NCBI RefSeq assembly: GCF_026210795.1
Contig: NC_089435.1
Span: forward strand, 2,542,001 to 2,606,000
Direction: 5' to 3'
DNA from: Rhizophagus irregularis
Lineage: Eukaryota
DNA: 64,000 bases
Shown: piece after piece, positions 4,971 to 49,035 of the stretch
How positions within the stretch are numbered: the first letter of the stretch is position 1
Layout of the letters: every line of letters begins with the position of its first letter
Notes under the pieces: generated by a model
Seen by the model: only the letters and a program-made list of their open reading frames with translations
Databases searched by the model: none
What the model was told of the DNA's origin: nothing
Made by a program: the position numbers and the translations under genes

Positions 4971-7558
4971 CATCAGTAAGTTAGGTCGGCATAAATCATT
5001 GTATTGAAAAGCACTGTAAAATTCGGCGCATTGATCATTGCAATGATTTATGCCAACAAAATACTAAACAATGCACCAATTATTCAGTGCAATGATCATT
5101 GTATTGGAAAGTGCATTGATTACTGTGACATAATTCAGCACCTTGATTAGTGTTAAAAGTTTCAGTGCGAATCTGTGACACAAAATTGCAAAGTTTATTT
5201 ACCTAACTTTAAGTTTATTTTTTATTAAGTTTATTTAGGTATATGGCTTCTTTCTTCGAAGCTGAAGTTTATTTTGCTTCAGTTTCAGTATTATTACTTT
5301 ATGATTTATCTTTTTATTTTTTTTATTGCTCATACTAATTATGTTTTTTTCTTAACATTCAAACATAGAAATAACATGAAACTTACCCTTCACATTTCAA
5401 GTCCAAGAAACTGTCTATAAAAGAAAATAAAAATAGAACGTTAATTAACGCTCTTAAAGTAAAAAAAAATTAAAAATCTAAAAAAGTAAGTCTCTTTTTT
5501 ATCCTTTTGTTTCTTTTAATTTTTTTAATTTCCCTTTGTTGATTGCGTTTTTTTTTGTAGAAATGGATTGATAATTTGAAAATAGTTCCGATCGGTGGTA
5601 TTACTAGTCATATGACTTATGGCCAAACCGATTTAAATAATCTTTTTTTAAGAGTTTTAAGAAAATTTTTTCTTTTTTATTTTAGGTAGGGAACTCAGAG
5701 TGAAAACGGGATATTAAGGTATTTTTATTAATATTATTTTATTTATCATTATTTTTTTAGGAATGAAATTGACTTTTTCTTTTCATTTAGGAACAGTTCT
5801 TTGGCAGATTTCCTAGACTTTCTGAAAAGATAAGTGTTTTTTTGGAGTGTATGATAGCGTAATGGCATTAGGAAACAATACTAACCCCATTTTTTTTATT
5901 CTTTTAGGTCCTTGAACACTTCTGAACGCTTCCTGGAATACAGATTTGAAGGTAGGCAGGTGTGTGCTGTGTATTGGTGTTAGAAAACAATACTAACGCC
6001 TTTTTTTTATTCTTTTAGATTCTTGGACGCTTCCTGGAATATAGATTCAAAGGTAGATAGGTATATGGTGTATATTTGCATTAGGAAACAATAATAATGC
6101 CTTTTTTTATTATTTTTTTAGGTTATTAGAAGCAAAATTTGCGGTAAGTTTCTTTGAGTGAATGCATGGTAGTTAATGGCGTTATGATAATATTAATACC
6201 TTTTATTTTTTTTAGATCGTTTGTTAGAATTGAACCAACTGGGACTATGACCAAACCATTAACAACAGGTAAAAATGGTAGAATATTTCTATTTTTTTTT
6301 AAAGAAGCGTTATATTAACATTTCTTTGTATTTTGTAGGTTCTTCTGGCTTCCCTTTACCATTGGATTCCTAGTAGGTATTTTGAAGTCAATTTTGATTT
6401 TTTTTTTGAAGTGCTATATTAACACTTTTTCTTTGTATTTTGTAGGTTTCTTTCAGCTTTTGGCATTGGATATTTGGATATCAGGTAGGCTTTAAAGACG
6501 AAAATTTGTTTTTTATTATTTTTTTTGAAGTGTTATACTAACACTTCTTTTATATTTTGTAGATTTCGTTCGGCATTGGATACTGAATACCGAGTATGCT
6601 TTAAAAACGAAATTTTTTTTATTATTTTTTTTTGAAATATTAACTAATACTTCTTATATATTTTGTAGGTTTCTGCTTCAATATTTGGCTGCTCATGTGG
6701 TAAGTTTCTGGAAATTAATTTCAAAATTATTTATTTATTTTTTTTAAAAGAAACGTTTACTAACGTTTCATTTTTTCTTTTTTACTCGGTATAGATTTCA
6801 GCTTTGCATTTAGGTGTTAGATTTTTGGTAAGTTTTGAAGTTATATCATAACTTTAAAACTATTTGTTTTTTTTAAAAGAATCGTTTTATTAACATTTCT
6901 TTTTGTTTTTTCTTGTAAGAGCCAATTTTGAATTTAGCTTAAGTTTGGAAGAAAGCAATTTATTATGACACCATAGTCCCGTTCAGGTGTCTTTTTTAAA
7001 AATTTCAATTTTTTTTTTTTTAATATCAGATAAATTTTTTTATTAAATTTTTTTTATTTTAGGAACGATTCAGCTCGGCAATTTCTTGGAATGGATATTT
7101 CTTGTAAGACTTGTGAGTTTTAGGAAGGATTTTTTTTAAAAATCTTAATGAAAACGTTATTAAATTAATGTTTCTATCTTATTTTATTTTTAGGAACGGT
7201 AGATTTCTTGAAATGGGACTTATCATTATTTACAATAATGTGAGTTTCAGGGGATAATTTAAATTAAATATATACTATAATAGACAGTTAGGTATATGAA
7301 AATAAAATAAATACAGTAAAATAAATAAATTAATTAATTAATAAATTAATAAATAAATAGAATAAAATGAAATTAAATAAATAAATTAAATAAAAAAATC
7401 TGTGCAATGATTTATGCGATGTAAATAAAACAGTGCGTTGATTGATGCTATTTTTCAACGCGCTGTTCTGTGTTGCCTTCGTAGAATCACATGATTTCAC
7501 GCTGATCTGTGTTGGCATAAAACAATGCGCAGTTTTATGCGCACTTAACTTACTGATG
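4971..7558. mobile_element. Non-autonomous TIR DNA transposon (CMC/CACTA-like) carrying a + strand multi-exon array
   Basis: TIR CATCAGTAAGTTA / TAACTTACTGATG, 2-bp TSD GA, subterminal repeats; empty site aaatgaacagttag matches the host intron pattern. Confidence 0.75.
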
Positions 7559-16679: not shown

Positions 16680-19600
16680 TTATGAAAACTAATATTCAAG
16701 TAGTTTCAACTTGCCTGAACAACTTTCAATTAATAAATAAAGTTGATTTCATTTGCCCAAAGTGGAAATATTACGCTATAAATTAAAAAACAGAAAAGAG
16801 AGTTAATATCATCAAGAAAAATGCAATTTTCTCTGAGCACTACACCTACATTCATGAAAATTAATATTCAAGTGGTTTCAACCTGCCTGAACAACTTTTA
16901 TTTAATAAATAAAGTTGATTTCATTTGTCTAAAGTGGAAATATTACGCTCTAAATTAAAAAACAGAAAAGAGAGTTAATATCATCAAGAAAAATGCAATT
17001 TTCTCTAAGCACTACACCTACATTCATGAAAATTAATATTCAAGTTGTTTTAACCTGCCTGAACAACTTTCAATTAATAAATAAAGTTGATTTCATTTGT
17101 CTAAAGTGGAAATATTACGCTCTAAGTTAAAAAAACAGAAAAGAGAGTTAATATCATCAAGAAAAATGCAATTTTCTCTAAGCACTACACCTACATTCAT
17201 GAAAATTAATATTCAAGTAGTTTCAACCTGCCTGAACAACTTTCAATTAATAAATAAAGTTGATTTCATTTGTCTAAAGTGGAAATATTACGCTCTAGAT
17301 TAAAACACAAAAAAGAGAGTTAATATCATCAAGAAAAATGCAATTTTCTCTAAGCACTACACCCCAATAAAAAGTTTATGTTGGGTTTTTGTAAAAAAAA
17401 CGTAAGATAAGTTAATATAACAAATTTAGTACAATTATGAGCATCCATTTGTACAATATCTGTAATGTTTTCGTATGGTATTTGAAATAAATTTGTTATA
17501 AACATGCATTATTTTTATATAGTATTTGAAAGTAATTTATTATAAATTTGCAATAGACTTGCACTTTATATGGTTTATTCTTCTAAATTTAAAATATAAT
17601 AATCTATTAAACTCGCTTTTTTTTGGCTTGTGCTATTGACCAGAGGTGGCAATGCTGATGTCTGAAATTATGTTTTCAATGTTATTCAAAATTCTAATAT
17701 TGTAGTAGGCTATGTACTTATTATACCAGTAATTTTACAGCTGACATATTCGAAGATTTTGTGATAAACTATCAAGAATAATATACACATGTATAGAATC
17801 CATAAGAGAGGTGCTGGTAGGAGGGTTATCTGTTTGAGAAGGGGAAGCTGTATCAACCAAAGAGTCAGGGTTGGTTTCGGAAGTGATAAAAGTGTTAGTA
17901 ATCGTATTAAGGAGGATGAGGAGCTGTAGAGTTATTGTCAGCATCATAGAGTCATTAGTGCGGGCTCTACATCAAACTTGAAAAGGATATGGAAAATTCT
18001 AGCAAATTAGAACTTTATGAACTAATAAAATTAAACAAATTAAAGCAATTTGTACCTTACCATTATGAACTTCTAACCAATTAAGGGAGTTTGGTTAACT
18101 TTAAAAGGTACAGTTGCTAGAATTGGCTCTTATCCCGCCTAAGTCTCTTAAGGAAATGGTTACTTCTAAGGTTATAGGTATGGAGTTCCGATCCAAAACC
18201 ACATTCTGAAAAAAAAAATTACTTTGGAAAGATGCTTTGATATGAATATAGAGATAAATGTGATTAATCAAAAGTGATTATGAAGATTTTGACATTGAAG
18301 CTGATGATTAATATGAAGTTAAAAATTTTAATAAAATTCATATTAAAACGTGTCTTAAAACATAAGCAATAAAAGTTATAAATAAAATTATTTAAATAGT
18401 ACATACCTCAAAAAAAAATTTTTATATTCATATTGGTGTATCAATTTTCGGATTATGTCATATATGTCGTTATAAAAAATAGAAATTATGGAAGGGATGA
18501 AATGAACCTATGAAAAAGGAAAATGAGATGTGTAAGATATTTAAAAAAATAAAAAAAAAGATGTGTGAAAAGAGAAAGTAAGTCGCATTAAAGGGGAGGA
18601 ATAAAACAAGACGCGTAAAAAAGGGAGGAATAAAACAAGACACGTAAAAAAGGGAGAAATAAAATAAAGACGCGTAAAGTAAGAAGAAATAGAATCAAGA
18701 TGTTTAAAAAGGGGAGGAATAAAATCAAGAAAATCAAGATGCGTAAAAAAAGGAGAAATAAAATAAAGACACGTAAAGAAAGAAGAAATAAATCAAGATA
18801 TTTAAAAAAGGAATAAAATCAAAAAATCAAGACGCATAAAAAAAAGAGAAATAAAATAAAGAAATGTAAAATAAAAAGGGAAAATAAAACAAGATATACA
18901 AATAAGAGAAATAGAGAAATAAACAAAACATGTAAGAAGGGAGAATAGATACTTAAAAAAGATAAAAACGCGTAAAAAAGGAGAATAGAAAGCAGGGAAT
19001 AAGATAACATAAGAAAAAGGAAAGAATAGTATAATGCATAAAAGAATACGGTAATAAGATGCATAAGATGCACAAAGTAAGGGTGATAGAGATGTGTAAA
19101 TAAATATTTGTTATTTACGTACTTCAAATTAAACGAAGTATATCATTACTATTTTAAGTTAAGTATTCCAAGTTTACCGAACTTCAATCTAAAATTGAAG
19201 TAAACAAAATAAAATTTTTTTTAAGAACTTTTTCTTTAACACAAATTTCAAACAAATTTAGAAATCATACAAATTTTGTTTATTAAATGTCATAAATTTT
19301 AATAAATCTTACAATAATTATACGTTTAAACTTTATAAAAAAATAAAAAATGTTTAAATATAACAAATACTATACGAAAATTAGACAATTATTACAAAAA
19401 CTAAACAAAAACCATATGAATTTTATACGAAGACTTTTTACTGGGCACCTACATTCATGAAAATTAATATTCAAGTTGTTTTAACCTGCCTGAACAACTT
19501 TCAATTAATAAATAAAGTTGATTTCATTTGTCTAAAGTGGAAATATTACGCTCTAAGTTAAAAAACAGAAAAGAGAGTTAATATCATCAAGAAAAATGCA

Positions 19601-20575
19601 ATTTTCTCTGAGCACTACACCTACATTCATGAAAATTAATATTCAAGTAGTTTCAACCTGCCTGAACAACTTTCAATTAATAAATAAAGTTGATTTCATT
19701 TGTCTAAAGTGGAAATATTACGCTCTAAATTAAAAAAACAGAAAAGAGAGTTAATATCATCAAGAAAAATGCAATTTTCTCTAAGCACTACACCTACATT
19801 CATGAAAATTAATGTTCAAGTTGTTTCAACCTGCCTGAACAACTTTCAATTAATAAATAAAGTTGATTTCATTTGTCTAGAGTGGAAATATTACGCTCTA
19901 AATTAAAACACAAAAAAGAGAGTTAATATCATCAAGAAAAATGCAATTTTCTCTAAGCACTACACCTACATTCATGAAAATTAATGTTCAAGTTGTTTCA
20001 ACCTGCCTGAACAACTTTCAATTAATAAATAAAGTTGATTTCATTTGTCTAGAGTGGAAATATTACGCTCTAAATTAAAACACAAAAAAGAGAGTTAATA
20101 TCATCAAGAAAAATGCAATTTTCTCTAAGCACTACATCTACATTCATGAAAATTAATATTCAAATGGTTTCAACCTGCCTGAACAACTTTCAATTAATAA
20201 ATAAAGTTGATTTCATTTGTCTAAAGTCGAAATATTACGCTCTAAGTTAAAAAACAGAAAAGAGAGTTAATATCATCAAGAAAAATGCAATTTTCTATGA
20301 GCACTACACCTACATTCATGAAAATTAATATTCAAGTAGTTTCAACCTGCCTGAACAACTTTCATTTAATAAATAAAGTTGATTTCATTTGCCCAAAGTG
20401 GAAATATTACGCTCTAAATTAAAAAACAGAAAAGAGAGTTAATATCATCAAGAAATGCAATTTTCTCTAAGCACTATACCTATATTCATGAAAATTAATA
20501 GTCAAGTGGTTTCAACATGCCTGAACAACTTTTAATTAATAAATGAAGTTGATTTCATTTGGCCAAAGTGGAGAT
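16680..20575. repeat. 172-173-bp tandem repeat (about 4 + 6.5 copies) split by a transposon
   Basis: Unit cacctacattcatgaaaattaat...ctaagcacta at 16843, 17015, 17188, resuming at 19446. Confidence 0.92.
17363..19445. mobile_element. Non-autonomous CCC...GGG TIR transposon (CMC-like)
   Basis: TIR CCCAATAAAAAGT / ACTTTTTACTGGG; 3-bp TSD CAC; the tandem repeat resumes exactly after it. Confidence 0.85.
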
Positions 20576-24222: not shown

Positions 24223-27200
24223 TTAATTTTCGTCTGCTTTAATATCTAAATAATTAAATATTAAATAAAATTAATTCACATAAATAATTTGCAAGATTAA
24301 TTCTTTTATATATCATAGTACATACCTAATGACCCCAGACCCTTAATTATATAATCATTCAAATCTTCACTTACTAGCATTTCATTTGCTTTTACACTAG
24401 CTTGTGAATTTTCACTTTCAGGAATTTCATTCAACTTTTTACTAGTATTCTCATCTGAATAATTAAATTAAATTAATTAATTTCATATAAATAATTTGCA
24501 AGATTAATTTTTTATATATTATAGTATATACCTAATGACCTCAAATCTCCTCTAATTACACAATCATTCAAATCTGAATGACTTGCATGATATGCTTGTG
24601 AATTTTCATTTTCAAGAATTTCATTCAATTTTTTACTAGTAAAATCAAGTAAGCGACTTGTAAAACATGCTTTAGGATGAGATTTAGTAGCAAGATTGTT
24701 ATGCCCAATTGGTGCATTTATAAATTCCATAATGTTGCTTTTTAATTCTTCACTGACTTCATTATCATAATGATGGAATTCACGGAAAATCCATGTTGCA
24801 ATAATTTCTGATACTTCTTCTGAAGATGGTCTTTTTAATGGATCTTCATTCCAACATTTTTTCATTAAATCTACATAACATTGTGGAGTATTTTCAATAA
24901 TTTTAGGACGTTCACCTTTACAAATACTTAAGCTAAGTTGAAGATCATGTGCTCTATTATTAAATGGTGGTATTCCAGATGTAAACTCCCACATAATCAT
25001 AGAAAAACTATATATATCACTAGCTGGAGTATAAGATTTGCCTCTTAAAATTTCAGGAGCCATAAATGATATAACACCATAAATATCATATTTTTCCAAA
25101 AACGATTTTACAGGTTGACATAATCCTAAATCACTAATATAAATTTTATCCTTATTCTTATTATCATCATGATTTAAAATATTACCATCATGAAAATCAC
25201 AATGAATAAGATTTTCTTTATGTATCTTACTAAGTCCAGAAATAATTTCATACAACATATATAATTTTTGATTCCAATTATTTTTGACTATACTTGTTAA
25301 ATTTTCTCTTAAATTACCTTTATTTGCATAATCCATTACTACCATATATTTCGATGTATTTGGATCTTTTGTGAATCCATAAAAATTTATAATATTGATT
25401 GAACTTAAAACACTTGTATGATATTCCCACTATAAACAATAATAATAATTTATTAACATAAATAAATTTAAATTTAAATTAAAAATAGAAAATAATATAC
25501 TATCATACTTCTTTCAAAAATTCATTTAAATTTTCATTTAAATTCTTATGACATTTAAGTATTACTTCTCCAACTCCATTTGACCAATTAGCTTTGTATA
25601 TAGTACCAAATCCTCCTTCATTAAGATATTCAACATTTTTAAATTTGTTATAAGGAATCCATTTTAATTCTTTTTTAAGAACAAAATCATCTATAATTGA
25701 ATTTCCACTTTTCCCAAATCTATAAATTTAAATAGTTAATATACTGTAGATTGTATTATAATTTATACAAAATAAATTATTACTTACTCTAAAATTTAAA
25801 TAGGGATTTAATGAAATATAAGTCTTAATTTTTAGATAAATACATATAATAATCTATGACTTACAACTTACCGACTAAAGTAATGGATATTTTTCGAATA
25901 AAAGAATTCAGTTAACAAATAAATATTATATAAAATATATAACAATAGAGACACTTACAAGCTAGATCATAAATAATTTAAGAAATTAGTTAGTTACATT
26001 ATATGTACTAAATATTATAATAATAAGTAATAATAGAATTAAATAAATAACTTACCATCTATAAAATAATTTTTTAAATAAAGAAATTAGTTGGTTTAAA
26101 TTATATGTAAATATTGTAATAATGAGTAATAGTAGAATTAAATAAATAACTTACGAACTATATTATTTAATAATTTTTAAATAAAGAAATTAATTAGTTT
26201 AAATTATATGTAAATATTATAACAATAAGTAATAAAAGAATTAAATAAATAACTTACGAACTATATTATTTAATAATTTTTTAAATAAAGAAATTAATTA
26301 GTTTAAATTATATGTAAATATTATAAATATTACAACAATAAGTAATAATAGAATTAAATAAATAACTTACTATCTATAAAATAATTTTTTAAGTAAAGAA
26401 ATTAATTAGTTTAAATTATATGTAAATATTATAACAATAAGTAATAATAGAATTAAATAAATAACTTACCATCTATAAGATAATTTTTTAAATAAAGAAA
26501 TTAATTAGTTTAAATATTATAACAATAAGTAATAATAAAATTAAATAAATAACTTACACCCTACATTATTTAATAATTTTTTAAATAAAGAAATTAGTTG
26601 GTTTAAATTATATGTAAATATTATAACATAAGTAATATTAGAATTAAATAAATAACTTATGACTTACCAACTAAAATAAATAACAAAATAATTTTTTAAA
26701 TAAAGAAATTAGTTGGTTTAAATTATATGTAAATATTATAACAATAAGTAATAATAGAATTAAATAAATAACTTACCATCTATAAAATAATTTTTTAAAT
26801 AAAGAAATTAATTAGTTTAAATATTATAACAATAAGTAATAATAGAATTAAATAAATAACTTACACCCTATATTATTTAATAATTTTTTAAATAAAGAAA
26901 TTAGTTAGTTTAAATTATATGTAAATATTATAACAATAAGTAATAATAGAATTAAATAAATAACTTACCATCTATAAAATAATTTTTTAAATAAAGAAAT
27001 TAGTTAGTTTAAATTATATGTAAATATTATAACAATAAGTAATAATAGAATTGAATAAATAACTTACACTCTATATTATTTAATAATTTTTTAAATAAAA
27101 AAATTAGTTAGTTTAAATTATATGTAAATATTATAACAATAAGTAATAATAGAATTAAATAAATAACTTACCATCTATAAAATAATTTTTTAAATAAAAA

Positions 27201-30200
27201 AATTAGTTAGTTTAAATTATATGTAAATATTATAACAATAAGTAATAATAGAATTAAATAAATAACTTACCATCTATAAAATAATTTTTTAAATAAAGAA
27301 ATTAGTTAGTTTAAATTATATGTAAATATTATAACAATAAGATAAAATAATTTTTTAAATAAAAAAATTAGTTAGTTTAAATTATATGTAAATATTATAA
27401 CAATAAGTAATAATAGAATTAAATAAATAACTTACCATCTATAAAATAATTTTTTAAATAAAGAAATTAATTAGTTTAAATATTATAACAATAAGTAATA
27501 ATAAAATTAAATAAATAACTTACACCCTATATTATTTAATAATTTTTTAAATAAAGAAATTAGTTAGTTTAAATTATATGTAAATATTATAACAATAAGT
27601 AATAATAGAATTAAATAAATAACTTACTCTCTATATTATTTAATAATTTTTAAATAAAGAAATTAGTTAATTTAAATTATATGCAAATATTATAATAATA
27701 AGTAATAATAGAATTAAATAAATAACTTATGACTTACCAACTAAAAAAATTATAAAATAATTTTTTAAATAAAGAAATTAGTTGGTTTAAATTATATGTA
27801 AATATTATAACAATAAGTAATAATGGAATTAAATAAATAACTTACTCTCTATATTATTTAACAATTTTTTAAATAAAGAAATTAGTTAGTTTAAATTATA
27901 TGTCCCTATAAAAAATAAATGTCCAGAAAATGTCTACGAAAATGTCTGGAAATTGTCCAGAATAAATCTGACATATCCAGAAATTGTCCGGAAAATGTCT
28001 ATTGTTTGCTACAAATTTGATACCTAAAATTTTGACATATCCGGACTTTGTCCAGAATATATCCAGAATTTGTCCAGTATAAAATTTTGGACAAATTCCG
28101 GACAGATAAACCCAGACAAATTCCGGACATAGTAAAAATTCAGATAATTTGAACTGGACAAATTCCGGACATGAAAAAATTCTGGACAAATTCTGGACGC
28201 TACTTCCAAAAAAGGATAAATTAATTTTGTAAAAAAAATGCAAAAATCACAAGACTGACATTCATAACCTCCTTTGTCATACTAATTAAATTTGCTAAGC
28301 AGGCAAAAATACTATATATCTATGATATAAAACTTTAGGTTAAAAGCAATTATAATGATGGCCACCTGTTGATCATCTTTTTGTGAAAATTTTATGAAAA
28401 AATATTTCAGGTCAATTTCCGGACAAATTCTGGACAAAATGAGTGTCCGGAAATGAGTGTGTTTTCGGAACAATTTCTGGACATGGTACCTGGCATTTTC
28501 TGGACATTTTCTGGACAATTATTTAGACAAATTTGCCGGACAATTTCTGGACAATTTCCGGACTCTTATTTTTTATAGGGTGTAAATATTATAACAATAA
28601 GTAATAATAGAATTAAATAAATAACTTATGACTTACCAACTAATAAAATTATAAAATAATTTTTTAAATAAAAAAATTAGTTAGTTTAAATTATATGTAA
28701 ATATTATAACAATAAGTAATAATAGAATTAAATAAATAACTTACTCCCTATATTATTTAATAAATTTTTAAATAAAGAAATTGGTTAGTTTAAATTATAT
28801 GTAAAATAAGAAATAATAGAATTAAATAAATAACTTATGACTTACCGACTAAAAAAATTATAAAATAATTTTTTAAATAAAAAAATTAGTTAGTTTAAAT
28901 TATATGTAAATATTATAACAATAAGTAATAATAGAATTAAATAAATAACTTACTCCCTATATTTTTTAATAATTTTTTAAATAAAGAAATTGGTTAGTTT
29001 AAATTATATGTAAAATAAGTAATAATAGAATTAAATAAATAACTTATGACTTACCAACTAAAAAAATTATAAAATAATTTTTTAAATAAAGAAATTAGTT
29101 AGTTTAAATTATATGTGAATATTATAACAATAAGTAATAGAATTAAATAAATAACTTACTATCTATAAAATAATTTTTTAAATAAAGAAATTAGTTAGTT
29201 TAAATTATATGTAAATATTATAACAATAAGTAGTAATAATAGAATTAAATAAATAACTTACCATCTATAAAATAATTTTTTAAATAAAAAAATTAGGTAG
29301 TTTAAATTATATGTATATATTATAACAATAAGTAATAATAGAATTAAATAAATAACTTACAATCTTTAAAATAATTTTTAAATAAAGAAATTAGTTAGTT
29401 TAAATTATATGTAAATATTATATCAATAAGTAATAATAGAATTAAATAAATAACTTACACCCTATATTATTTAATAATTTTTTTAAATAAAGAAATTAGT
29501 TAGTTTAAATTATATGTGAATATTATAACTAGGGATGGCAACGGTCATGGTCATTAACCGATTATGACCGGCCATGGCTGTGACTGATATTGGTTGGTCA
29601 AGACTTCTGACCGACTGTTTGACTGACCAAATTTTTTTATAAAGAATTTAATAAAAATGTCACGAAAACATTTTTATTAATAATTTAATTAAAAAAAACA
29701 TTTTCGCAAATGTTATTATTTTAACAAAAATGTTGTGAAATGTTTTTATTAATAATTTAATTAAAATAAAGCTTTTTCGCAACATTTTTTTAATTATTTT
29801 AATAGAAACGTTGCAAAAATGTTTTTTATTAATAATTTAATAAAAAAAAAAGTTTTCACACATTTTTTCAATTGCCTTAATAAAAACGCAGAAAAAAAAT
29901 GATCAGCCAAATGGTCAGTCAAACAGTCAGTCAGTCGGTCAAAGGTTCTTGACTGGTCATAACTGACCATTGACCGACCATGACTGACCGTTGCCATCCC
30001 TAATTATAACAATAAGTAATAACAGAATTAAATAAATAACTTACCATCTATAAAATAATTTTTTAAATAAAGAAATTAGTTAGTTTGAATTATATGTAAA
30101 TATTATAACAATAAGTAATAATAGAATTAAATAAATAACTTACTCCCTATATTATTTAATAATTTTTTAAATAAAGAAATTAATTAGTTTAAATTATATG

Positions 30201-33200
30201 TAAATATTATAACAATAAGTAATAATAGAATTAATTAAATAACTTACTCCCTATATTATTTAATAATTTTTTAAATAAAGAAATTAATTAGTTTAAATTA
30301 TATGTAAATATTATAACAATAAGTAATAATAGAATTAAATAAATAACTTACTCCCTATATTATTTAATAATTTTTTAAATAAAGAAATTAGTCAGTTTAA
30401 ATTATATGTAAATATTATAACAATAAGTATTAATAGAATTAAATAAATAACTAACGAGCTATATTATTTAAATAAAAAAATTAGTTAGTTTAAATTATAT
30501 GTAAATATTATGATAATAAGTAATAACAAAATTAAATAAATAACTTACGAACTATATTATTTAATAATTTTTTAAATAAAGAAATTAATTAGTTTAAATT
30601 ATATGTAAATATTATGACAATAAGTAATAATAGAATTAAATAAATAACTTACTCCCTATATTATTTAATAATTTTTTAAATAAAGAAATTAGTTAGTTTA
30701 AATTATATGTAAATATTATAACAATAAGTAATAATAGAATTAAATAAATAACTTACTATCTATAAAATAATTTTTTTAAATAAAGAAATTAGTTAGTTTA
30801 AATTATATGTAAATATTATAACAATAAGTAATAATAGAATTAAATAAATAACTTACCATCTATAAAATAATTTTTTAAATAAAGAAATTAATTAGTTTAA
30901 ATATTATAACAATAAGTAATAATAAAATTAAATAAATAACTTACACCCTATATTATTTAATAATTTTTTAAATAAAGAAATTAATTAGCTTAAATTATAT
31001 GTAAATATTATATCAATAAGTAATAATAGAATTAAATAAATAACTTATGACTTACCAACTAAAATAAATTACAAAATAATTTTTAAATAAAAAAATTAAT
31101 TAGTTTAAATTATATGTAAATATTATAACAATAAGTAATAATAGAATTAAATAAATAACTTACTCCCTATATTATTTAATAATTTTTTAAATAAAGAAAT
31201 TAATTAGTTTAAATTTTGTGTAAATATTATAACAATAGGTAATAATATAATTAAATAAATAACTTACTCCCTATATTAACCCAAAGATAAGATTTTCTGG
31301 TAATTTTTATCTTTAAGGGGAAAAAATTTTAGTCGATCATCCCATTTTGACCAGATTTTCGCCAAAATTTTCCCATTCCATTTTTAAAAATCACCACATG
31401 CACAGTTGCCGTGGATACGAAAAAAATTGCCTTTTTGGTAAAAAAGTCTCCAGTTAATCTTTATATTATTATGTACTTGTACATGTACATGAACATGAAC
31501 ATGAACATGAACATGAACATGTACAGTACATGTACATGTACAGAGAAAGTGAACATTCACTATGGAAACTTTTTGCGCTGAGTTTAACTGTGCTGCTCAA
31601 AAAGAATGTTAACTTGACAGATCATGAAATAGTATGTTGATCATTTTTTATTAAAATGTGAAAAAAAAAAAAATTTTTTTTTTTTAATCAAAAACGTCAA
31701 AAATTTGACGTTTTTGTGATTGAAAAATAAAAAAAAAATTGATTTTTTTTAATCAAAACGTCAGACTTGACGTTTTTGTGATTGAAAAATCAAAAATAAT
31801 TGATTTTTTTAAATCAAAAACGTCAAAATAATTGATTTTTTTAATCAACTTGACGTTTCTGTGATTAAAAAATCAAAAAAAAATGATTTTTTTAATCAAA
31901 AACGTCAGACTTGACATTTCTGTGATTAAAAAATCAAAAAAAAAATGATTTTTTTAATCAAAAACGTCAGACTTGACATTTCTGTGATTAAAAAATCAAA
32001 AAAAAATGATTTTTTTAATCAAAAACGTCAGACTTGACGTTTCTGTGATTAAAAAATCAAAAAAAAAATGATTTTTTTAATCAAAAACGTCAGACTTGAC
32101 GTTTCTGTGATTAAAAAATCAAAAAAAAATGATTTTTTTAATCAAAAACGTCAGACTTGACGTTTCTGTGATTAAAAAATCAAAAAAAAAATGATTTTTT
32201 TAATCAAAAACGTCAGACTTGACGTTTTTGTGATTAAAAAATCAAAAAAAAATGATTTTTTTTAATCAAAAGTCTGATGATTTTGTAATTAAAATCAAAA
32301 AAATTTGATTTTTATTAGCTAAAAACGTAAGACTTGACGTTTTTGTTATTAAAAATCAAGGAAGAATGATTTTTATTAGCTGAAAACGTCAGACTTGACG
32401 TTTTTGTTATTAAAAATCAAGGAAAATGATTTTATTAGCTAAAAACGTCAGACTTGACATTTTTGTTATTAAAAATCAAGAAAATTTGATTTTTATTAGC
32501 TAAAAACGTCAGACTTGACGTTTTTGTTATTAAAAATCAAGAAAATTTGATTTTTATTAGCTAAAAACGTCAGACTTGACGTTTTTGTTATTAAAAATCA
32601 AGAAAATTTGATTTTTATTAGCTAAGAACGTCAGACTTGACGTTTTTGTTATTAAAAATCAAGGAAAAATGATTTTTATTAGCTAAAAACGTCAGACTTG
32701 ACGTTTTTGTTATTAAAAATCAAGGAAAATGATTTTTATTAGCTAAAAACGTCAGACTTGACGTTTTTGTTATTAACAATCAAGGGAAAATGATTTTCAT
32801 TAGCTAAAAACGTCAGACTTGACGTTTTTGTTATTAACAATCAAGGGAAAATGATTTTTATTAGCTAAAAACGTCAGACTTGACGTTTTTGTTATTAAAA
32901 ATCAAGGAAAAATGATTTTTATTAGCTGAAAACGTCAGACTTGACGTTTTTGTTATTAAAAATCAAGGAAATTTGATTTTTATTAGCTGAAAACGTCAGA
33001 CATGACATTTTTGTTATTAAAAATCAAGGAAATTTTGATTTTTATTAGCTAAAAACATCATACTTGACGTTTTTGTTAGCTAAAAATCAAAAAAAATAGT
33101 GTACTTTTGTAAAAGTATACTAATAAATTAATAAAAGATTTTTTTATAACAATAGATTGTGTTTAGTGAGATTTATAAAAAAATTTAATGAGACTTTTTT

Positions 33201-36200
33201 TTAATAATAGTTTGGCATAAAAAAATTTTCTAGGATTTTCTTTTTTAATAATATAATGGTATAGTACAATAGATAGATATAATAAAATTTTCTGGGATTT
33301 ATTTTAATAACAATAGGTATGATAAAATTTTGATTTTTTTTTTAATATTAAACAATAGATTGGTATCATAGTACAATAGATTTATTTAATAAGTTTTTTG
33401 TGATTTTTTTAATAACAATAAATTGGTAATAACAATTATTAACTTATTAAGTTAATAATTGTTTTTTAGTAAAATTTTTTCCAGTAATACTAATACTACT
33501 AATAGGTAATAGATAACTTAATAAACTTTTATAAAATAGATTAAGATATATAAAAAAAATTTGAGATTTTTTTAACAATAGATTGGTACAATGAATAGAT
33601 ATAAAAAAATTTTCTGAATTTTTTTTTTAATAATAGATTGATATAAATATATTTTCTGAACTTTTTTTTTAACAATAGAGTCATTAGATCAATATAAAAA
33701 ATTTTTTGATAACAACAGATTGGTATGTTATAACTTATAATGGATAGATATAAAGAATTTTCTAAGGTTTTTTATTAATACAATAGATCAGTTTCTGGAA
33801 TTTTTTATGACAAATTAATTGGTATAGTACAAAAGATACTAGGTATAAAATTTCTTGGGATTTATTTTAATAACAATAGGTATGATAAAATTTTTGGTGA
33901 CTTTTTTTTAATAATAATAGATTGGTAATAGACAATTATTACTGCGACTAGTAATTATTGAAAACCAATCTGATTTGCCAATTCATTATCAGTTCAGTTT
34001 TTAATGTTTTTGCAACATTTTTTATTGTCTATTACCAATCTATTGTTATTAAAAAAAACACAAAAAATTTTATTAAATCAATCCATTGTACTATACCATC
34101 CATTGTACTATGATACCAATCTATTATTGTTATTAAAAAAAAAATAATCACCAAAAATTTAGCATACCTATTGTTATTAATATAAATCTCAGAAAATTTT
34201 ATTATATCTACTGTATCTATTGTACTATACCATTAAAAAAATCTTGGAAAATTTTTTTATTACTACTTATCAGTAATATTAGTGTTACTGTGAACTATAA
34301 AAAAAATCTTACTAAAAACAATTATTAACTTCAGTTAATAAGTTAATTGTCTATTACCAATATATTGTTATTAAAAAAAAATCATAGAAAATTTTTTTAT
34401 AAATCTCACTAACACAATCTATTGTTATAAAAAAATCTTTTATAAATTTATTAGTATACTTTCAAAACTAAACTCACTCACTATATCCAAAAGTACACTA
34501 GTTATTTAATAATTTTTTAAATAAAGAAATTAATTAGTTTAAATTATATGCAAATATTATAACAATAAGTAATAATAGAATTAAATAAATAACTTACTCC
34601 CTATATTATTTAATAATTTTTTAAATAAAGAAATTAATTAGTTTAAATTATATGTAAATATTATAACAATAAGTAATAATAGAATTAAATAAATAACTTA
34701 CTCCCTATATTATTTAATGATTTTTTAAATAAAGGAATTAGATAGTTTAAATTATATGTAAATATTATAACAATAAGTAATAATAGAATTAAATAAATAA
34801 CTTACCATCTATAAGATAATTTTTTAAATAAAGAAATTAATTAGTTTAAATATTATAACAATAAGTAATAATAAAATTAAATAAATAACTTACACCCTAC
34901 ATTATTTAATAATTTTTTAAATAAAGAAATTAGTTGGTTTAAATTATATGTAAATATTATAACATAAGTAATATTAGAATTAAATAAATAACTTATGACT
35001 TACCAACTAAAATAAATAACAAAATAATTTTTTAAATAAAGAAATTAGTTGGTTTAAATTATATGTAAATATTATAACAATAAGTAATAATAGAATTAAA
35101 TAAATAACTTACCATCTATAAAATAATTTTTTAAATAAAGAAATTAATTAGTTTAAATATTATAACAATAAGTAATAATAGAATTAAATAAATAACTTAC
35201 ACCCTATATTATTTAATAATTTTTTAAATAAAGAAATTAGTTAGTTTAAATTATATGTAAATATTATAACAATAAGTAATAATAGAATTAAATAAATAAC
35301 TTACCATCTATAAAATAATTTTTTAAATAAAGAAATTAGTTAGTTTAAATTATATGTAAATATTATAACAATAAGTAATAATAGAATTGAATAAATAACT
35401 TACACTCTAAATTATTTAATAATTTTTTAAATAAAAAAATTAGTTAGTTTAAATTATATGTAAATATTATAACAATAAGTAATAATAGAATTAAATAAAT
35501 AACTTACCATCTATAAAATAATTTTTTAAATAAAAAAATTAGTTAGTTTAAATTATATGTAAATATTATAACAATAAGTAATAATAGAATTAAATAAATA
35601 ACTTACCATCTATAAAATAATTTTTTAAATAAAGAAATTAGTTAGTTTAAATTATATGTAAATATTATAACAATAAGTAATAATAGAATTAAATAAATAA
35701 CTTACACTCTATATTATTTAATAATTTTTTAAATAAAAAAATTAGTTAGTTTAAATTATATGTAAATATTATAACAATAAGTAATAATAGAATTAAATAA
35801 ATAACTTACCATCTATAAAATAATTTTTTAAATAAAAAAATTAGTTAGTTTAAATTATATGTAAATATTATAACAATAAGTAATAATAGAATTAAATAAA
35901 TAACTTACCATCTATAAAATAATTTTTTAAATAAAGAAATTAATTAGTTTAAATATTATAACAATAAGTAATAATAAAATTAAATAAATAACTTACACCC
36001 TATATTATTTAATAATTTTTTAAATAAAGAAATTAGTTAGTTTAAATTATATGTAAATATTATAACAATAAGTAATAATAGAATTAAATAAATAACTTAT
36101 AACTTACGATCTTTTAAATAAAGAAATTAGTTAGTTTAAATTATATGTAAATATTATAACAATAAGTAATAATAGAATTAAATAAATAACTTACACCCTA

Positions 36201-37095
36201 TATTATTTAATAATTTTTTAAATAAAGAAATTAGTTAAATTATATAAATAATATAAATATAGATATCATATAACTTACACCCTGTAGTATTATTAATTAT
36301 TAATTAGTTAAATATAAAGATAATATAAAAGTATTTACTGTAAATTATATATATTACTTACAATCTAGTAGTTATTTAAATTAAGAATATAATTAGTTGA
36401 ATTATGTAAAATATTAAACAAATAAATATAATATATATATTGTAACTTACCATCTGTAATATAATTAATTATTAAATAGTTATTTAAACAAAGAATTTAG
36501 TTAATTGAATGTTATGTAGAATAAATAATTAAAGGAATAAAGATTTAAATAACTGATAACTTACCAACTACAGTATTATTAATCATTAAATAAATTATTT
36601 AGTTATATGGAATACAATAAAAATAATGAGTAATTCATTATATTAACTTACAAGCTAAATATTTAATATAATTTTTATATAAAATAGTTAGCCTAAATAG
36701 TATTTGAATTGTTTATAAATAAAAATTTAATATTTTAGCTTGTTTGATATACCTTTAGGTTCTCCAGTGCCACTTCCTTCAAATTCCTTGATGCTACTTC
36801 TTTCAAATTCTTCAGTGCCACTTTCTTCAAATTCTTCAATATTTCTGGAAACTAGTTTTATTATATTGGAAAATTTGGTTTAATTATATTTGATTATTTA
36901 TAATTAAGTTTTCTTAATAAATAAAAATCTTAATATTTCAATTTTGTTTTGTATACTATATTTACCTTCAGGTTCTTTGGTATCACACAAAACTAGTTTT
37001 ATTATATTGCAAGTTTGTTTTAATAATTTTGAATAATCCTAATTTATATTACTATTCATGTTATATGCTTTACCTTTACCAATACGTTGGCCCAT
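24223..37095 (-). CDS. Tyrosine-kinase-like protein kinase with about 72 exons, including 64 3-nt microexons and one 1-nt exon
   Basis: Exons 37095-37074 (MGQRIGK), 36992-36966, 36851-36753, microexons 36654-25872, 25788, 25719-25509 (GGFG, VILK), 25429-24532 (HCDFHDGN, DLG, MAPE), 24454-24326, 24245-24223 (stop); all GT-AG, continuous frame. Confidence 0.85.
27904..28580. mobile_element. CCC...GGG MITE (copy 1) in an array intron
   Basis: TIR CCCTATAAAAAATAA; 3-bp TSD TGT; internal tccgga/ctggac repeats. Confidence 0.92.
29530..30002. mobile_element. hAT-type MITE in an array intron
   Basis: TIR TAGGGATGGCAACGGTCA; 8-bp TSD ATTATAAC. Confidence 0.93.
31279..34501. mobile_element. 3.2-kb composite non-coding insertion (possibly Helitron/Helentron-like)
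   Basis: Array unit resumes exactly after it; left hairpin, (CATGAA)n, minisatellite, foldback 33097-34500, ends CTAG; possible TTA duplication. Confidence 0.7.
31680..33090. repeat. 60-62-bp minisatellite with internal palindrome aaaacgtca-gact-tgacgtttt
   Basis: About 23 copies in two sequence subtypes, switching near 32290. Confidence 0.92.
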
Positions 37096-43130: not shown

Positions 43131-44546
43131 TTCTCACGATCAACCCGTTTTACGCCAAAAAATTTATCAATTACTGCGCTTTATATAGACTAAATCATTC
43201 ATATGCTCCAGATCTACAAGTCTTTGATCATCCCCGACTCTAAATATTTTTGGCTATCTTAGAAGGAAAATTGTAAAAATATCATAAAAAAATATAATAA
43301 TAAAATGACGTAGTCAAATCACATGTCCAGACCATAAATCAATTACGTGCCTATATACTGCGGTATAATTTTCTGAAAAAAGACACGCGCTTCGCACGTC
43401 TATTCTTTCAGCTGAATATCAACTGCACCAGGTGATCTATCTCACATGACGAAATTTTCCTCTATGCTTTACCGATACCATCCTGAATAGCATTTCGATC
43501 TCGTAATAGTCACCGTGACCCATTCACCTTTTATAGTGTTCCTTATAGTTTTTTTCTTTATGTTCATGATTGCACATAGGATAGAGTACGGAATTATTAA
43601 AATTAAATCCGTCACCACGTTCATAACTATTCCTTAAAGATAGATAAGTCCAATGATATATTTTCATTTTTCTTCAGTAAGTTAGAAATCGAAAGTCTGG
43701 ATTTGCAATCACCTCTGGTATCTGTACTCATCTTTACATCAGTTAATAAAAAATGACAGAATATTTGAAAACTTTTTAACATTTTCTATAAATGAACATC
43801 TGTACCACTAAAAATGGACGTTAAAACTAACGGTTTATTAACATAAAATGACGTTCAAACTGCGGAGGGTATGCTAATAAATGATTATTGAAAGGACGAA
43901 AATAAAGAAAAAAAATCTTCGAGCGTAAAAGAGTTTGATAGATATAAACAAAAAAATTTTTAAATATTATTTTGATTTTCATACACAGTATATAAGTAAG
44001 ATAAAAAAATTGAAATTTAATACTAAATACAGTATATCATTAATAAGTAATGTAATTAACGAAAAGATTTAATACTAAAATATGTATCATTAGAAATAAT
44101 GCTGTAGTTTTTATAATATTTGTGTAATTTCAATAACCTGTATAACAGTTGTATAGTGCTAATAATCGTCGGCGAAACGTTTATTGCGAAATAATCCTGT
44201 AAGTGAAACGTTTATCGATGAGATAATTGTCGGAGAAATGAACCATTATAATTATTATTTATTCTATTTTGAAAGAATTAAATTTTTTACTCGCAATCGA
44301 AATCACTTTACTCGATCGGCAGGTTTAACTTTTCTACAAATTTCGCGTATATTTATTATTCCGGATGATCCCACCAAAATTAATATGGTACGATGATCCA
44401 ACTGATCCGTGAAAAATTGACAATTCAGCCGATTTTATGCAAATGAACTGTGACACAAATTCATTAAAATTAATTAGAATGAATAAAATGAATAAAAAAA
44501 ATATAAAAATATCAGATATGACTTTGAAATTATATTAATAATTAAA

Positions 44547-45647
44547 ATGACAATTACAAGAATAATTAGGATAATTTACTTTTCAATATTAATCATAATT
44601 GAATCAATTATTTATTTTATACCTATAATTACAATATGTCTAATATCAAATTTTTTTATCACGTTAATTTGGTACTTGCCGTCAATATATCAATTATATT
44701 CATTTATTTTTACTAAAAAGAAGGTTGATTTAAGAATAAAAATTTATTTATTTTTATTATCACCTTTAATTATAATATTATATATTCCATTTTGTACCAT
44801 AATTTTTATTGGATATATTGTTAATATTACATTAACACGTCGATTAATAACAATTTTTTTGAGACCAGAATATACAATTTATTCATTTTCTTTAACAGCA
44901 TCATTAATTCACTTGTTTTATCAATACTTACATGAAAATGATTCTTCTAATAATTTAAAAGATTCTTTAATAATTGAAATATTCTTAGAAATTATACAAT
45001 TTATAAAAGATTATTGGAATTTTAATTCAATTAAAATTTCAAAAAAAATTCAAAAATGTGAAATAAATATTTTTAAAATTATCTTTTATAAAATAATCAA
45101 TTTTTTCGATTTTATCATAATTTTTTTATTTCTTATTATAATAATTATATTTTGGATAATAATTTCATTAATAATAATAATTATATATTGTTGTATCTCT
45201 TTAACATCTCAAACTTTTCATAAACAACATGATGAATTTTTAAAGAATCGTGAATGTAATTCACTTAAAATTTTTATAAAAGTTTTAATAATTTTAATAT
45301 TTTTACCAATATTTTATTTAATTGGTGTTATTTATGCTTCATTTATTATTATCATTACTTATATATTATTATGGGTTATTACTATTATTGAAGTATTTAT
45401 TACTGTAATTAAAATGTATAATGAAAATGGTTTTCATAATGTTATGAATTATTTTAGAATAATTATTATTAAATTAATCTTATATTTAGAGAATGTAATT
45501 GGAGTAGAATTTGAATCATTAATTTATTCTTGGTTTGAAATTTATATTGATGATTTTGATGAATATTTATTACAAAAAGCAAATGCTATTATGAAGGTTT
45601 TTGAATTTGGTCTAATACTTAATATTTGTTTTATGAAATATCCTTAA
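44547..45647 (+). CDS. Multi-pass membrane protein of unknown function (3' end may be spliced)
   Basis: 366-codon ORF with several hydrophobic segments and polar loops. Confidence 0.6.
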   Translation: MTITRIIRIIYFSILIIIESIIYFIPIITICLISNFFITLIWYLPSIYQLYSFIFTKKKVDLRIKIYLFLLSPLIIILYIPFCTIIFIGYIVNITLTRRLITIFLRPEYTIYSFSLTASLIHLFYQYLHENDSSNNLKDSLIIEIFLEIIQFIKDYWNFNSIKISKKIQKCEINIFKIIFYKIINFFDFIIIFLFLIIIIIFWIIISLIIIIIYCCISLTSQTFHKQHDEFLKNRECNSLKIFIKVLIILIFLPIFYLIGVIYASFIIIITYILLWVITIIEVFITVIKMYNENGFHNVMNYFRIIIIKLILYLENVIGVEFESLIYSWFEIYIDDFDEYLLQKANAIMKVFEFGLILNICFMKYP

Positions 45648-47379: not shown

Positions 47380-49035
47380 TAACGAATCCTTAACGAATCC
47401 TTACTAAGTTTCGTAATGAACTCAATCTTCCAGTAGTCAGGACTTGAATCCTACAAAAAGAAAATAGAGGAACGTCAACAATACGTTTTCTTTTTTTAAG
47501 AAATCAAAAAAAGTAAAGTTTATGTTGAAACTTACTCTGTCTTTTCCGATGACCTAGTTTGCCTGAGTATATAAAAAAGAAAGTTTAAAAATTTTGAAAC
47601 ACTAAACATATGAGCCAGAACCTATATAATAGGAAAAAAACGTTAATAAAATGTTTTTAAGGTCTGCATCTGGAAATAATTTTGAAAACTTCCCGATTCT
47701 TCTGTGTCCAATCTTACGAAAAAAGAAAAAAAAAGACAAAATCCATTTTTTTAAAGGTTCAAATTTTTTTTTTCGAAACTTATCTGTCCTACACGTCTAA
47801 AGAAAAAAGTTGCAATGCTAATGAATGTTTCGTTAAAATAGTTAGCTCAAAGAAAACCTACTCACCAAATTCTCACATGTTTAAAGTAATCCGAAGAAAT
47901 GGCTACTATCTAAAAAAAGGAAACAACCCATTAGAAAACATTTCGTTAAGAGGAACAAATTAACTGATTTTTCACCAAGAATTTACGCGTCCAATGTCTA
48001 ACTATCACCCAAGTCATACTTGAAATATCGAAAGATAGATTATTGAATTCAGTCTTCAATAGTACAAAAGTATCGTATGGAGGGTACTCATCTTTAATCT
48101 AATCAACAGGGACTTTGGTTTAATTCAACTCTCACGATACCCTACGAATCCCTAAGCTTAGAAAAGGTATCTCATCGATATCTAAAAAAAAAAAGAAAAA
48201 CAAAATCATTTAAAAAAAAACCTCCCATTGAAATCTCATCCCCCATCTAGAAAAGTCACCTAAAACAAAAGAATTAAATTCAAAATCATATACCCTGATT
48301 TTCTTTCCCATGTGTCCAGCCCATCTAAAAAAAAAGATAAAATTGAAGTTAATGTACAGTACATTTCGTTAGAATAAATAAACTAAAACAGAGAAAAAAC
48401 TTATTAAAAACGCGTCCAAAGAAACCCGAAAAACTACCTGAAAAGAAATGAACTGTTAGTGACCGTTTGTTAAAATAAATTAAAGAAAAAAAATTTTTTT
48501 CTAAAACTTACGAAATGTCACATAGGAGACCGAGGAGCCGCCTAAAGAAAAAGAAAAAATTGAAATGTTATAACATTTCATTATCATTATAGAATTTGAT
48601 TTTTTTTTTCTGGATTCTCTTCAACTTTTTTTTAAATAAAATACGGGAGAAGAAGGAAAGGATGAGGGATGAAAACGAAATTTTTATAAAAAAAAATTTA
48701 AAAATATGGTGGTTAAACAACCGTAAAAAATATATTTTTTTTTTTAAGCAAATTATAAAACAGTTTTTTTAGTAAAAAAAATTTTTTTTTTAAAAAAAAA
48801 GATATAAACAATGAAGGGAAGAAGGAATGAAGAGAAAAATGAAGGAAAGAAATGTGGGGAAATGAAAGGTAAAGGGCGAAAGGAAAGATTTTCGTTGGAA
48901 AAAAAATTTAAAAGTTAAAAATAGTTTATTTTTATATTAATGATCGCTAAGTTAAAAAAAGTTTAGATCAAACTATTAATTATTTTATAATGTCCCGTGT
49001 ATCACATGATACATAAGGCTTTTCCCGATGTTAAA
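47380..49035 (-). other. Second minus-strand short-exon array, related in layout to 1623-7850
   Basis: Repeated cttac/ctcac...ctaaaaa units; shared upstream motif tgatacataa...cccgat(a/g)ttaaa. Confidence 0.5.

Follow-up and report, generated by a model that had tools for sequence, protein, structure and literature searches.

A likely one-base exon between predicted three-base exons and the kinase domain in a Rhizophagus protein kinase family

The window, a 64,000-nucleotide (nt) stretch of Rhizophagus irregularis DNA, carries on its minus strand a gene that was modeled with 72 exons, 71 introns (all GT-AG) and 533 open codons (Table 1). From its sequence, the gene is a predicted Rhizophagus-type PF07714 protein kinase, and all the kinase motifs were located in its exons, namely what we take to be the Gly loop, the Lys, the catalytic Asp, a DFG-like motif, and APE. 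The next intron within the kinase part is supported by a 79-nt joint (25429-25509; 60 and 88 reads in the wider alignment of two RNA runs), and no exact joint of the two predicted 3' exons was seen in that alignment. A search of solved structures at E values up to 1e-20 returned none for the kinase. At the other end, the ATG at 37095 opens the model and the protein begins with MGQ followed by an acidic Glu/Ser/Thr/Gly repeat. The Met-Gly start (37074-37095, minus strand) is shared with the paralogs P0030 and P0041. N-myristoylation of such a start is presumably possible.

Table 1. Features of the modeled kinase gene and of the DNA inserted in it, in window coordinates
Feature	Position	Strand	Basis or remark
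Two 3' exons to stop codon, predicted	24223..24454	-	Model only
Main kinase exon, Pfam PF07714	24532..25429	-	118 bits against a cut-off of 23; 3' end from model
First exon of the kinase (211 nt; starts in phase 2; includes Gly loop and catalytic Lys)	25509..25719	-	RNA depth ends at 25719
GT..AG intron, 68 nt, 3' of the one-base exon	25720..25787	-	Spliced out of 7+8 raw reads and 1 contig; cut unambiguous
One-base exon (A)	25788..25788	-	Sequence, RNA joint 25719-25788, conserved in L001 and L002
GT..AG intron, 83 nt, 5' of the one-base exon	25789..25871	-	Partly retained in poly(A) reads; out in 3+1 reads anchored on both sides
Last 3-nt exon (TCG; TTG in many paralogs)	25872..25874	-	Joint 25719-25874 enclosing three letters; DNA-like contigs show the variant base
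Array block 4: 20 AG-NNN-GT exons	25872..27848	-	Last three (ATG, CTT, TCG) match RNA consensus triplets
788-nt intron with ~680-nt MITE-like element, inverted ends	27849..28636		Element at about 27900-28580
Array block 3: 9 predicted 3-nt exons	28637..29461	-	Splice signals only
583-nt intron with ~470-nt MITE-like element, inverted ends	29462..30044		Element at 29530-30003
Array block 2: 13 predicted 3-nt exons	30045..31270	-	Splice signals only
3327-nt intron with inserted DNA	31271..34597		Insertion close to 3' end of an array intron
61-nt satellite, ~20 copies	31848-33096		Inside the 3327-nt intron
Array block 1: 22 predicted 3-nt exons	34598..36654	-	Splice signals only
Three 5' coding exons (22, 27, and 99 nt), predicted	36753..37095	-	All end in phase 1; similar N-termini in P0024, P0030, P0041, and P0064

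Between the 5' coding exons and the kinase part lies an array of 64 AG-NNN-GT sites, arranged in four blocks at a spacing of ~100 nt, a count that describes a splice-signal pattern in which individual exons may be unused. The gene has 61 instances of the signal YAG-NNN-GTAAG, against 0 in 105,600 nt outside it, and a CTRAY motif was found within 55 nt of the acceptor in 58 of the 68 short introns. RNA consensus backs the last few exons of the array only, and does so in paralogs. The array is a tandem repeat of an intron plus a codon. Within unit types, the exon triplet differs more than the next 30 intron nt (0.476 versus 0.036 and 0.113 versus 0.022), so that triplet variation amounts to five to thirteen times that of the intron bases that follow. 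This excess suggests diversification, and a G/C mutation bias in AT-rich DNA could also cause it. Read in phase 1, the array contains no stop, which lends weak support to that reading: a stop is absent from 15% of shuffled orders too, and phase 0 is likewise without one. In the model of this copy, the predicted segment ahead of the kinase includes 13 Tyr, 9 Asp, 9 Arg, and 9 Gly in 66 residues, and the one-base exon described below likely sets the frame of the predicted 64-exon array such that it encodes this polar Tyr/Asp/Arg/Gly segment.

Three of the introns in the array contain inserted DNA, in two cases a MITE-like element. Given these three insertions, one of which lies near an acceptor, this copy may be partly or wholly silent. 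Just within the large insertion, at 34480 on the minus strand, AG-TGA-GTGAGT forms a potential new 3-nt exon that was omitted from the model. Elsewhere, the window holds an open frame of 773 codons that encodes calpain domains (PF00648 and PF01067; 60702-63023, plus strand), an open frame with the cyclin N-terminal domain PF00134 (58567-59418, minus strand), and a 383-codon open frame without a Pfam match (44496-45647, plus strand). A 172-nt repeat forms two arrays of 4 and 6.6 copies with 95% matches (16682-17363 and 19446-20572), and the two-copy repeats of 101 to 106 nt at 5926-6673 resemble duplicated intron-plus-short-exon units of another gene.

The original prediction, made from the letters of the window, had placed an exon of a single A at 25788, read on the minus strand as ttttag-A-gtaagta and flanked by introns of 83 nt on the 5' side and 68 nt on the 3' side. 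The sequence bears out this reading, and the coordinates of the two introns agree, both being GT..AG. The phase mismatch on which the prediction was built is also present: each modeled upstream exon ends in phase 1, and phase 2 is what the kinase exon at 25719 requires. The A supplies the central position of a Glu codon (G|A|A) split over three exons, and the consensus of spliced reads likewise codes for Glu at this place. A motif scan placed a branch-like TTAAC 20 nt 5' of the acceptor of the 68-nt intron, and a YTRAY scan of the 83-nt intron gave no match. The 83-nt intron contains a second GTAAGT, 7 nt past its own donor.

By itself, the AG-A-GTAAGT motif does not exceed chance level: the window has 3 HAGNGTAAGT sites where 1.08 are expected, and 11 shuffles out of 100 had at least as many. 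On the minus strand at 47536, a CAG-A-GTAAGT look-alike is apparently just the end of a longer exon. The frame, for its part, is open over 533 aa with the A, and skipping the A with the same sites leads to a stop at codon 123. This fit had been taken as independent support for an obligatory exon, a claim that does not stand. Open frames of 481 to 535 aa that lack the A are also obtained with eight phase-1 acceptors located within the first kinase exon and with two alternative donors after the TCG exon; hence, the sequence does not force the A, and the frame fit is no proof of a one-base exon because alternative splice sites also leave the frame open. It is RNA, and not the frame, that selects the one-base exon, which rises above chance because of the RNA reads and of its conservation in two of three related loci.

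Reads were aligned to 25630-26030 from two poly(A) raw-read runs with the same species label (X23 and X24, from one study, about a quarter of each being read) and from two contig sets, of which X3, from another study, is RNA by guess and X15 is a DNA-like run. A joint 25719-25788, in which 68 nt are skipped between CT..AC ends (GT..AG on the minus strand) with no ambiguity in the cut, was found in 7 reads with 6 starts in X23, in 8 reads with 8 starts in X24, and in 1 contig of X3, the short side reaching up to 65 letters in X23 and 73 letters in X24. The same joint was absent from X15, and a further 2 + 2 reads (X23 + X24) join at 25788 via diverged exon letters. The reads from which the 68-nt intron is removed continue into a retained 83-nt intron; therefore, the A is pinned to genomic position 25788. 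Moreover, 3 + 1 reads carry the joint 25719-25874, and those of X23 hold three letters between its two sides, which are the A and the rest of TTG. In these reads, both introns are thus out and the next intron upstream is still in. Over the 68-nt intron, RNA depth was 0 to 1; over the 83-nt intron, it rose as high as 18 and 14, X15 covering both. Eleven X23 reads enter the 68-nt intron by 3 letters and then diverge; these may be unspliced reads of a diverged paralog, which weakens a strict order of intron removal.

Fully spliced reads appear as loose ends at 25719, the first base of the kinase exon, which were found in 282 of 527 aligned X23 reads and 379 of 592 aligned X24 reads. Their consensus, read by hand, is ATG-CTT-TTG-A, which in phase 1 gives His-Ala-Phe-Glu and matches the window model, TTG being the paralog form of the window's TCG exon. 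The cDNA junction expected from the window, CTTTCG-A, is thus recovered as CTT-TTG-A, and the partly spliced reads use the expected donor at 25787 and acceptor at 25720. Another 23 + 20 reads with an identical ending have their loose ends at 25718, and the consensus splits into triplets resembling the 3-nt exons of the window. Loose ends at the start of the kinase exon appeared again in the wider alignment (253 and 320 reads). The consensus fades upstream (agreement 0.56 to 0.59), a decay that a mixture of paralogs would also explain. Among the aligned reads, which are mostly paralog-derived, the consensus and all the joints listed contain the A. Only 9 of 1,119 aligned raw reads were at least 99% alike to this copy and most were 85 to 95% alike, so that nearly all of them stem from paralogs or alleles and are evidence for the family rather than for this copy. 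The genomic view of the read-donor paralogs is that given by the intron parts carried in partly spliced reads.

The same site was followed in related loci and in deposited proteins. A metagenome scan yielded three short loci from 289 candidate stretches. L001 (81% identical in protein) retains AG-A-GTAAGT at the corresponding position, as does L002 (69%), in which the introns have diverged and a 3-nt exon lies farther upstream. In L003 (58%), the aligned site, within 300-400, reads AG-T-AT and its donor is not intact; the kinase frame is open and the first kinase exon begins two codons later. Conservation of AG-A-GT therefore holds in two of the loci and fails in the third. The deposited relatives examined, the best 120 of 130, are nearly all named as proteins of R. 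irregularis, Rhizophagus diaphanus or Rhizophagus clarus, and identity in the first kinase exon reaches 95% among the closest of those listed. The RNA-supported junction occurs in 0 of these 120. The residues that they show before FGK are SK in 18, NLE-like in 5, V/I-G-K-L in 3, R in 11, and other in 24; 12 begin at FGK, 46 are without an FGK-like start by the pattern used, and 4 read through as YLNFR. SK, NLE, and YLNFR would be the work-arounds of gene predictors confronted with the same AG-A-GTAAGT. In seven of the nine SK models with a longer upstream part, L/I/M/G/V make up 76 to 100% of this part, the composition obtained when the 3-nt exons are translated in phase 0; the frame seen in RNA gives a polar segment. 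With the first 90 residues of P0024 as query, 5 proteins were obtained from 28 candidates, 3 of them already known relatives, and no transcript-derived protein with a spliced array was among them. The 2 new matches, P0123 and P0124, lack a kinase and have the acidic exon-3 module at the C-terminus; they are probably gene models extended by mistake into the 5' exons of a kinase gene of this type.

Several other explanations were weighed against these data. The one that deserves most attention accepts the one-base exon for the family and proposes that this copy is silent or mis-spliced, the A being an inherited relic in an array broken by the three insertions. The inserted DNA in the introns of 3,327, 583, and 788 nt speaks for it, as do the few closely matching reads (at 25682, only 7 of ~950 raw reads are without the common variant letter). 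However, the model is open over its whole length with intact kinase motifs, the insertions are confined to introns, and the RNA runs are maybe from another isolate, since the best run listed contains at most 0.60 of the words. We consider silence of this copy unlikely, at a level that still has to be reckoned with. Skipping of the A in the family is a much poorer candidate. In that case, the frame would be kept by a phase-1 acceptor in the kinase exon (25691 and seven more) or by a longer TCG exon ending at the second GTAAGT, and the open A-less routes counted above would favor it, together with the deposited P0041 and P0064, which join straight to DDF, and the three listed relatives with V/I-G-K-L. 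The RNA contradicts it: depth continues to 25719 with no step at 25690, and no pile of loose ends lies at 25690 among the best-supported rows (the smallest having 11 and 9 reads). Furthermore, the consensus at 25719 begins with the A, a joint 25719-25872 is absent among the joints listed, and the piles at 25668-25669 were recognized by hand as diverged kinase-exon sequence. We thus regard skipping as improbable.

Slightly more doubtful again is a 5-nt exon, in which the donor would lie 4 nt later (A plus GTAA) and translation in phase 0 would turn the array into a hydrophobic Leu/Ile/Met/Gly segment, a reading that several deposited models seem to follow. The SK that precedes FGK in 18 of the 120 listed relatives would fit, if it does originate from 5 nt, as would the composition of the longer SK models and the stop-free phase 0 of the window array. 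Yet translation from the window ATG would then meet a stop at codon 115, the RNA joint lies at 25788 rather than at 25784, and the consensus has one A; on the position of the joint and the single A, the 5-nt exon was rejected as the main form. The least credible proposal, which we hold to be very improbable, makes AG-A-GT a chance motif and attributes the extra A to RNA editing or to a longer exon of a paralog. It can draw on the chance-level motif count and on the look-alike at 47536; it fails to account for partly spliced reads that cross the A into the retained 83-nt intron at this very site, and for a motif preserved in a locus with diverged introns.

Altogether, we put at about 0.86 the probability that the A at 25788, between ordinary GT-AG introns, is a one-base exon that shifts the phase-1 array into the phase-2 kinase exon. 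Splicing of AG-A-GT as a one-base exon is real at the level of the kinase family, and this copy likely behaves in the same way. We propose a model in which the short introns would each be recognized individually, by intron definition. The 68-nt downstream intron would usually be removed first, the A thereby becoming the first base of a 212-nt exon, so that the spliceosome would never handle a free one-base exon. The 83-nt upstream intron, devoid of a consensus branch motif, would be removed more slowly, and poly(A) reads retaining it could instead be dead ends. As for its origin, the array would have grown through tandem duplication of a single intron-plus-codon unit. As 3-nt exons are frame-neutral, units could be gained, lost or skipped. 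The lone asymmetric one-base exon would have been retained at the end of the array, where it would fix the frame of a polar linker of ~65 residues before the kinase. By analogy with what is reported for the nank genes of Tuber, this linker might be a fast-varying recognition or regulatory segment.

Single-nucleotide exons have been described in plants, in APC11 of Arabidopsis, where the exon was proven by mutation (PMC4674806), and in VPS55 (PMC8831610). They too consist of one base between canonical AG and GT that is essential for the frame and was overlooked by annotation. These are, however, isolated exons in low-copy conserved genes, whereas the exon studied here ends an array of 3-nt exons in a multigene family with introns of less than 90 nt; and the APC11 exon rests on mutation, the kinase one on sequence and RNA reads. 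The plant survey also reports that introns around microexons are more retained, especially the upstream ones (PMC8831610), a bias that resembles the retained upstream 83-nt intron of the kinase family. Among fungi, a one-nucleotide exon is known from the CYP621A P450 genes of Fusarium (PMC12940212), and 13 one-nt exons are annotated in Coprinopsis cinerea (PMC12230235). What these reports share with our case is the fungal host, a mid-codon base that leads from a phase-1 donor to a phase-2 acceptor, and support from RNA reads and conservation. The CYP621A exon has normal exons on either side and forms part of a conserved fold motif, whereas the kinase exon is found where a variable segment meets the kinase. 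The kinase-family reads differ in including half-spliced forms, from which the downstream junction can be seen on its own. One-nt exons are therefore rare, as the original prediction stated, but have already been published, including the 13 in one mushroom genome. At the family level, the kinase exon belongs to the spliceosomal single-nucleotide exons of the APC11/CYP621A type.

The array has its nearest counterpart in the nank (NACHT-ankyrin) genes of Tuber melanosporum, for which microexons the size of a codon (Iotti et al. 2012, as cited in PMC4986451 and PMC13449251) and alternative splicing (cited in the same two papers) were reported. According to these secondary accounts, the two share tens of codon-sized exons (64 predicted in the kinase gene) within an expanded fungal gene family, and they differ in that nank encodes an NLR of an ascomycete and the present gene a protein kinase of a Rhizophagus-type mycorrhizal fungus. 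Neither NACHT nor ankyrin was matched when the two kinase exons were scanned, and a model of 533 aa is too short to accommodate such domains. The kinase gene thus resembles nank in layout and lies outside the nank class because the host gene is a kinase. The micro-exon genes (MEGs) of Schistosoma encode small secreted proteins, and most of their exons are longer than one codon. They have runs of short frame-neutral exons in common with the gene modeled here, which differs by its kinase domain.

Expanded PF07714 protein kinase families are known in R. irregularis (PMC6123716 and PMC4219462); the Pfam match is the same, and the accessible text of these two papers does not mention microexons. A literature search, with most subscription papers outside its reach, found no report of microexons or codon-exon arrays in Rhizophagus or its kinases. 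One-base exons and codon-exon arrays are thus each known, and neither was found in print for these kinases or fungi. The newness lies in the position of the one-nt exon, which terminates a spliced codon-exon array and likely sets its frame, within a kinase family that is expanded and mis-annotated; an array closed in this way is more unusual than a one-nt exon alone.

Our study bears on how this family is read and how it may evolve. With the RNA junction in 0 of the 120 listed relatives, the N-termini in part of this family, which ranks among the most expanded that these fungi have, are likely wrong, being hydrophobic or missing where the RNA frame gives a polar segment, and public gene models likely misread or miss the predicted 64 three-base exons. 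How a one-base exon is processed naturally can be seen in the half-spliced reads, in which the downstream intron leaves first. The RNA consensus shows that consecutive 3-nt exons reach the mRNA, which makes the kinase family a testable model of nank-like codon-level diversification. More tentatively, and with odds that we place clearly below even, we suggest a large AM-fungal kinase family with a hypervariable front built at one codon per exon, which would be diversified by duplication, fast codon change, and exon skipping, would have its frame locked by a conserved one-base exon, and would be spliced from its 3' end first, the growing downstream exon taking up one tiny exon after another. If true, this would represent a splicing-based system of receptor diversity outside NLRs, concealed until now by wrong gene models.
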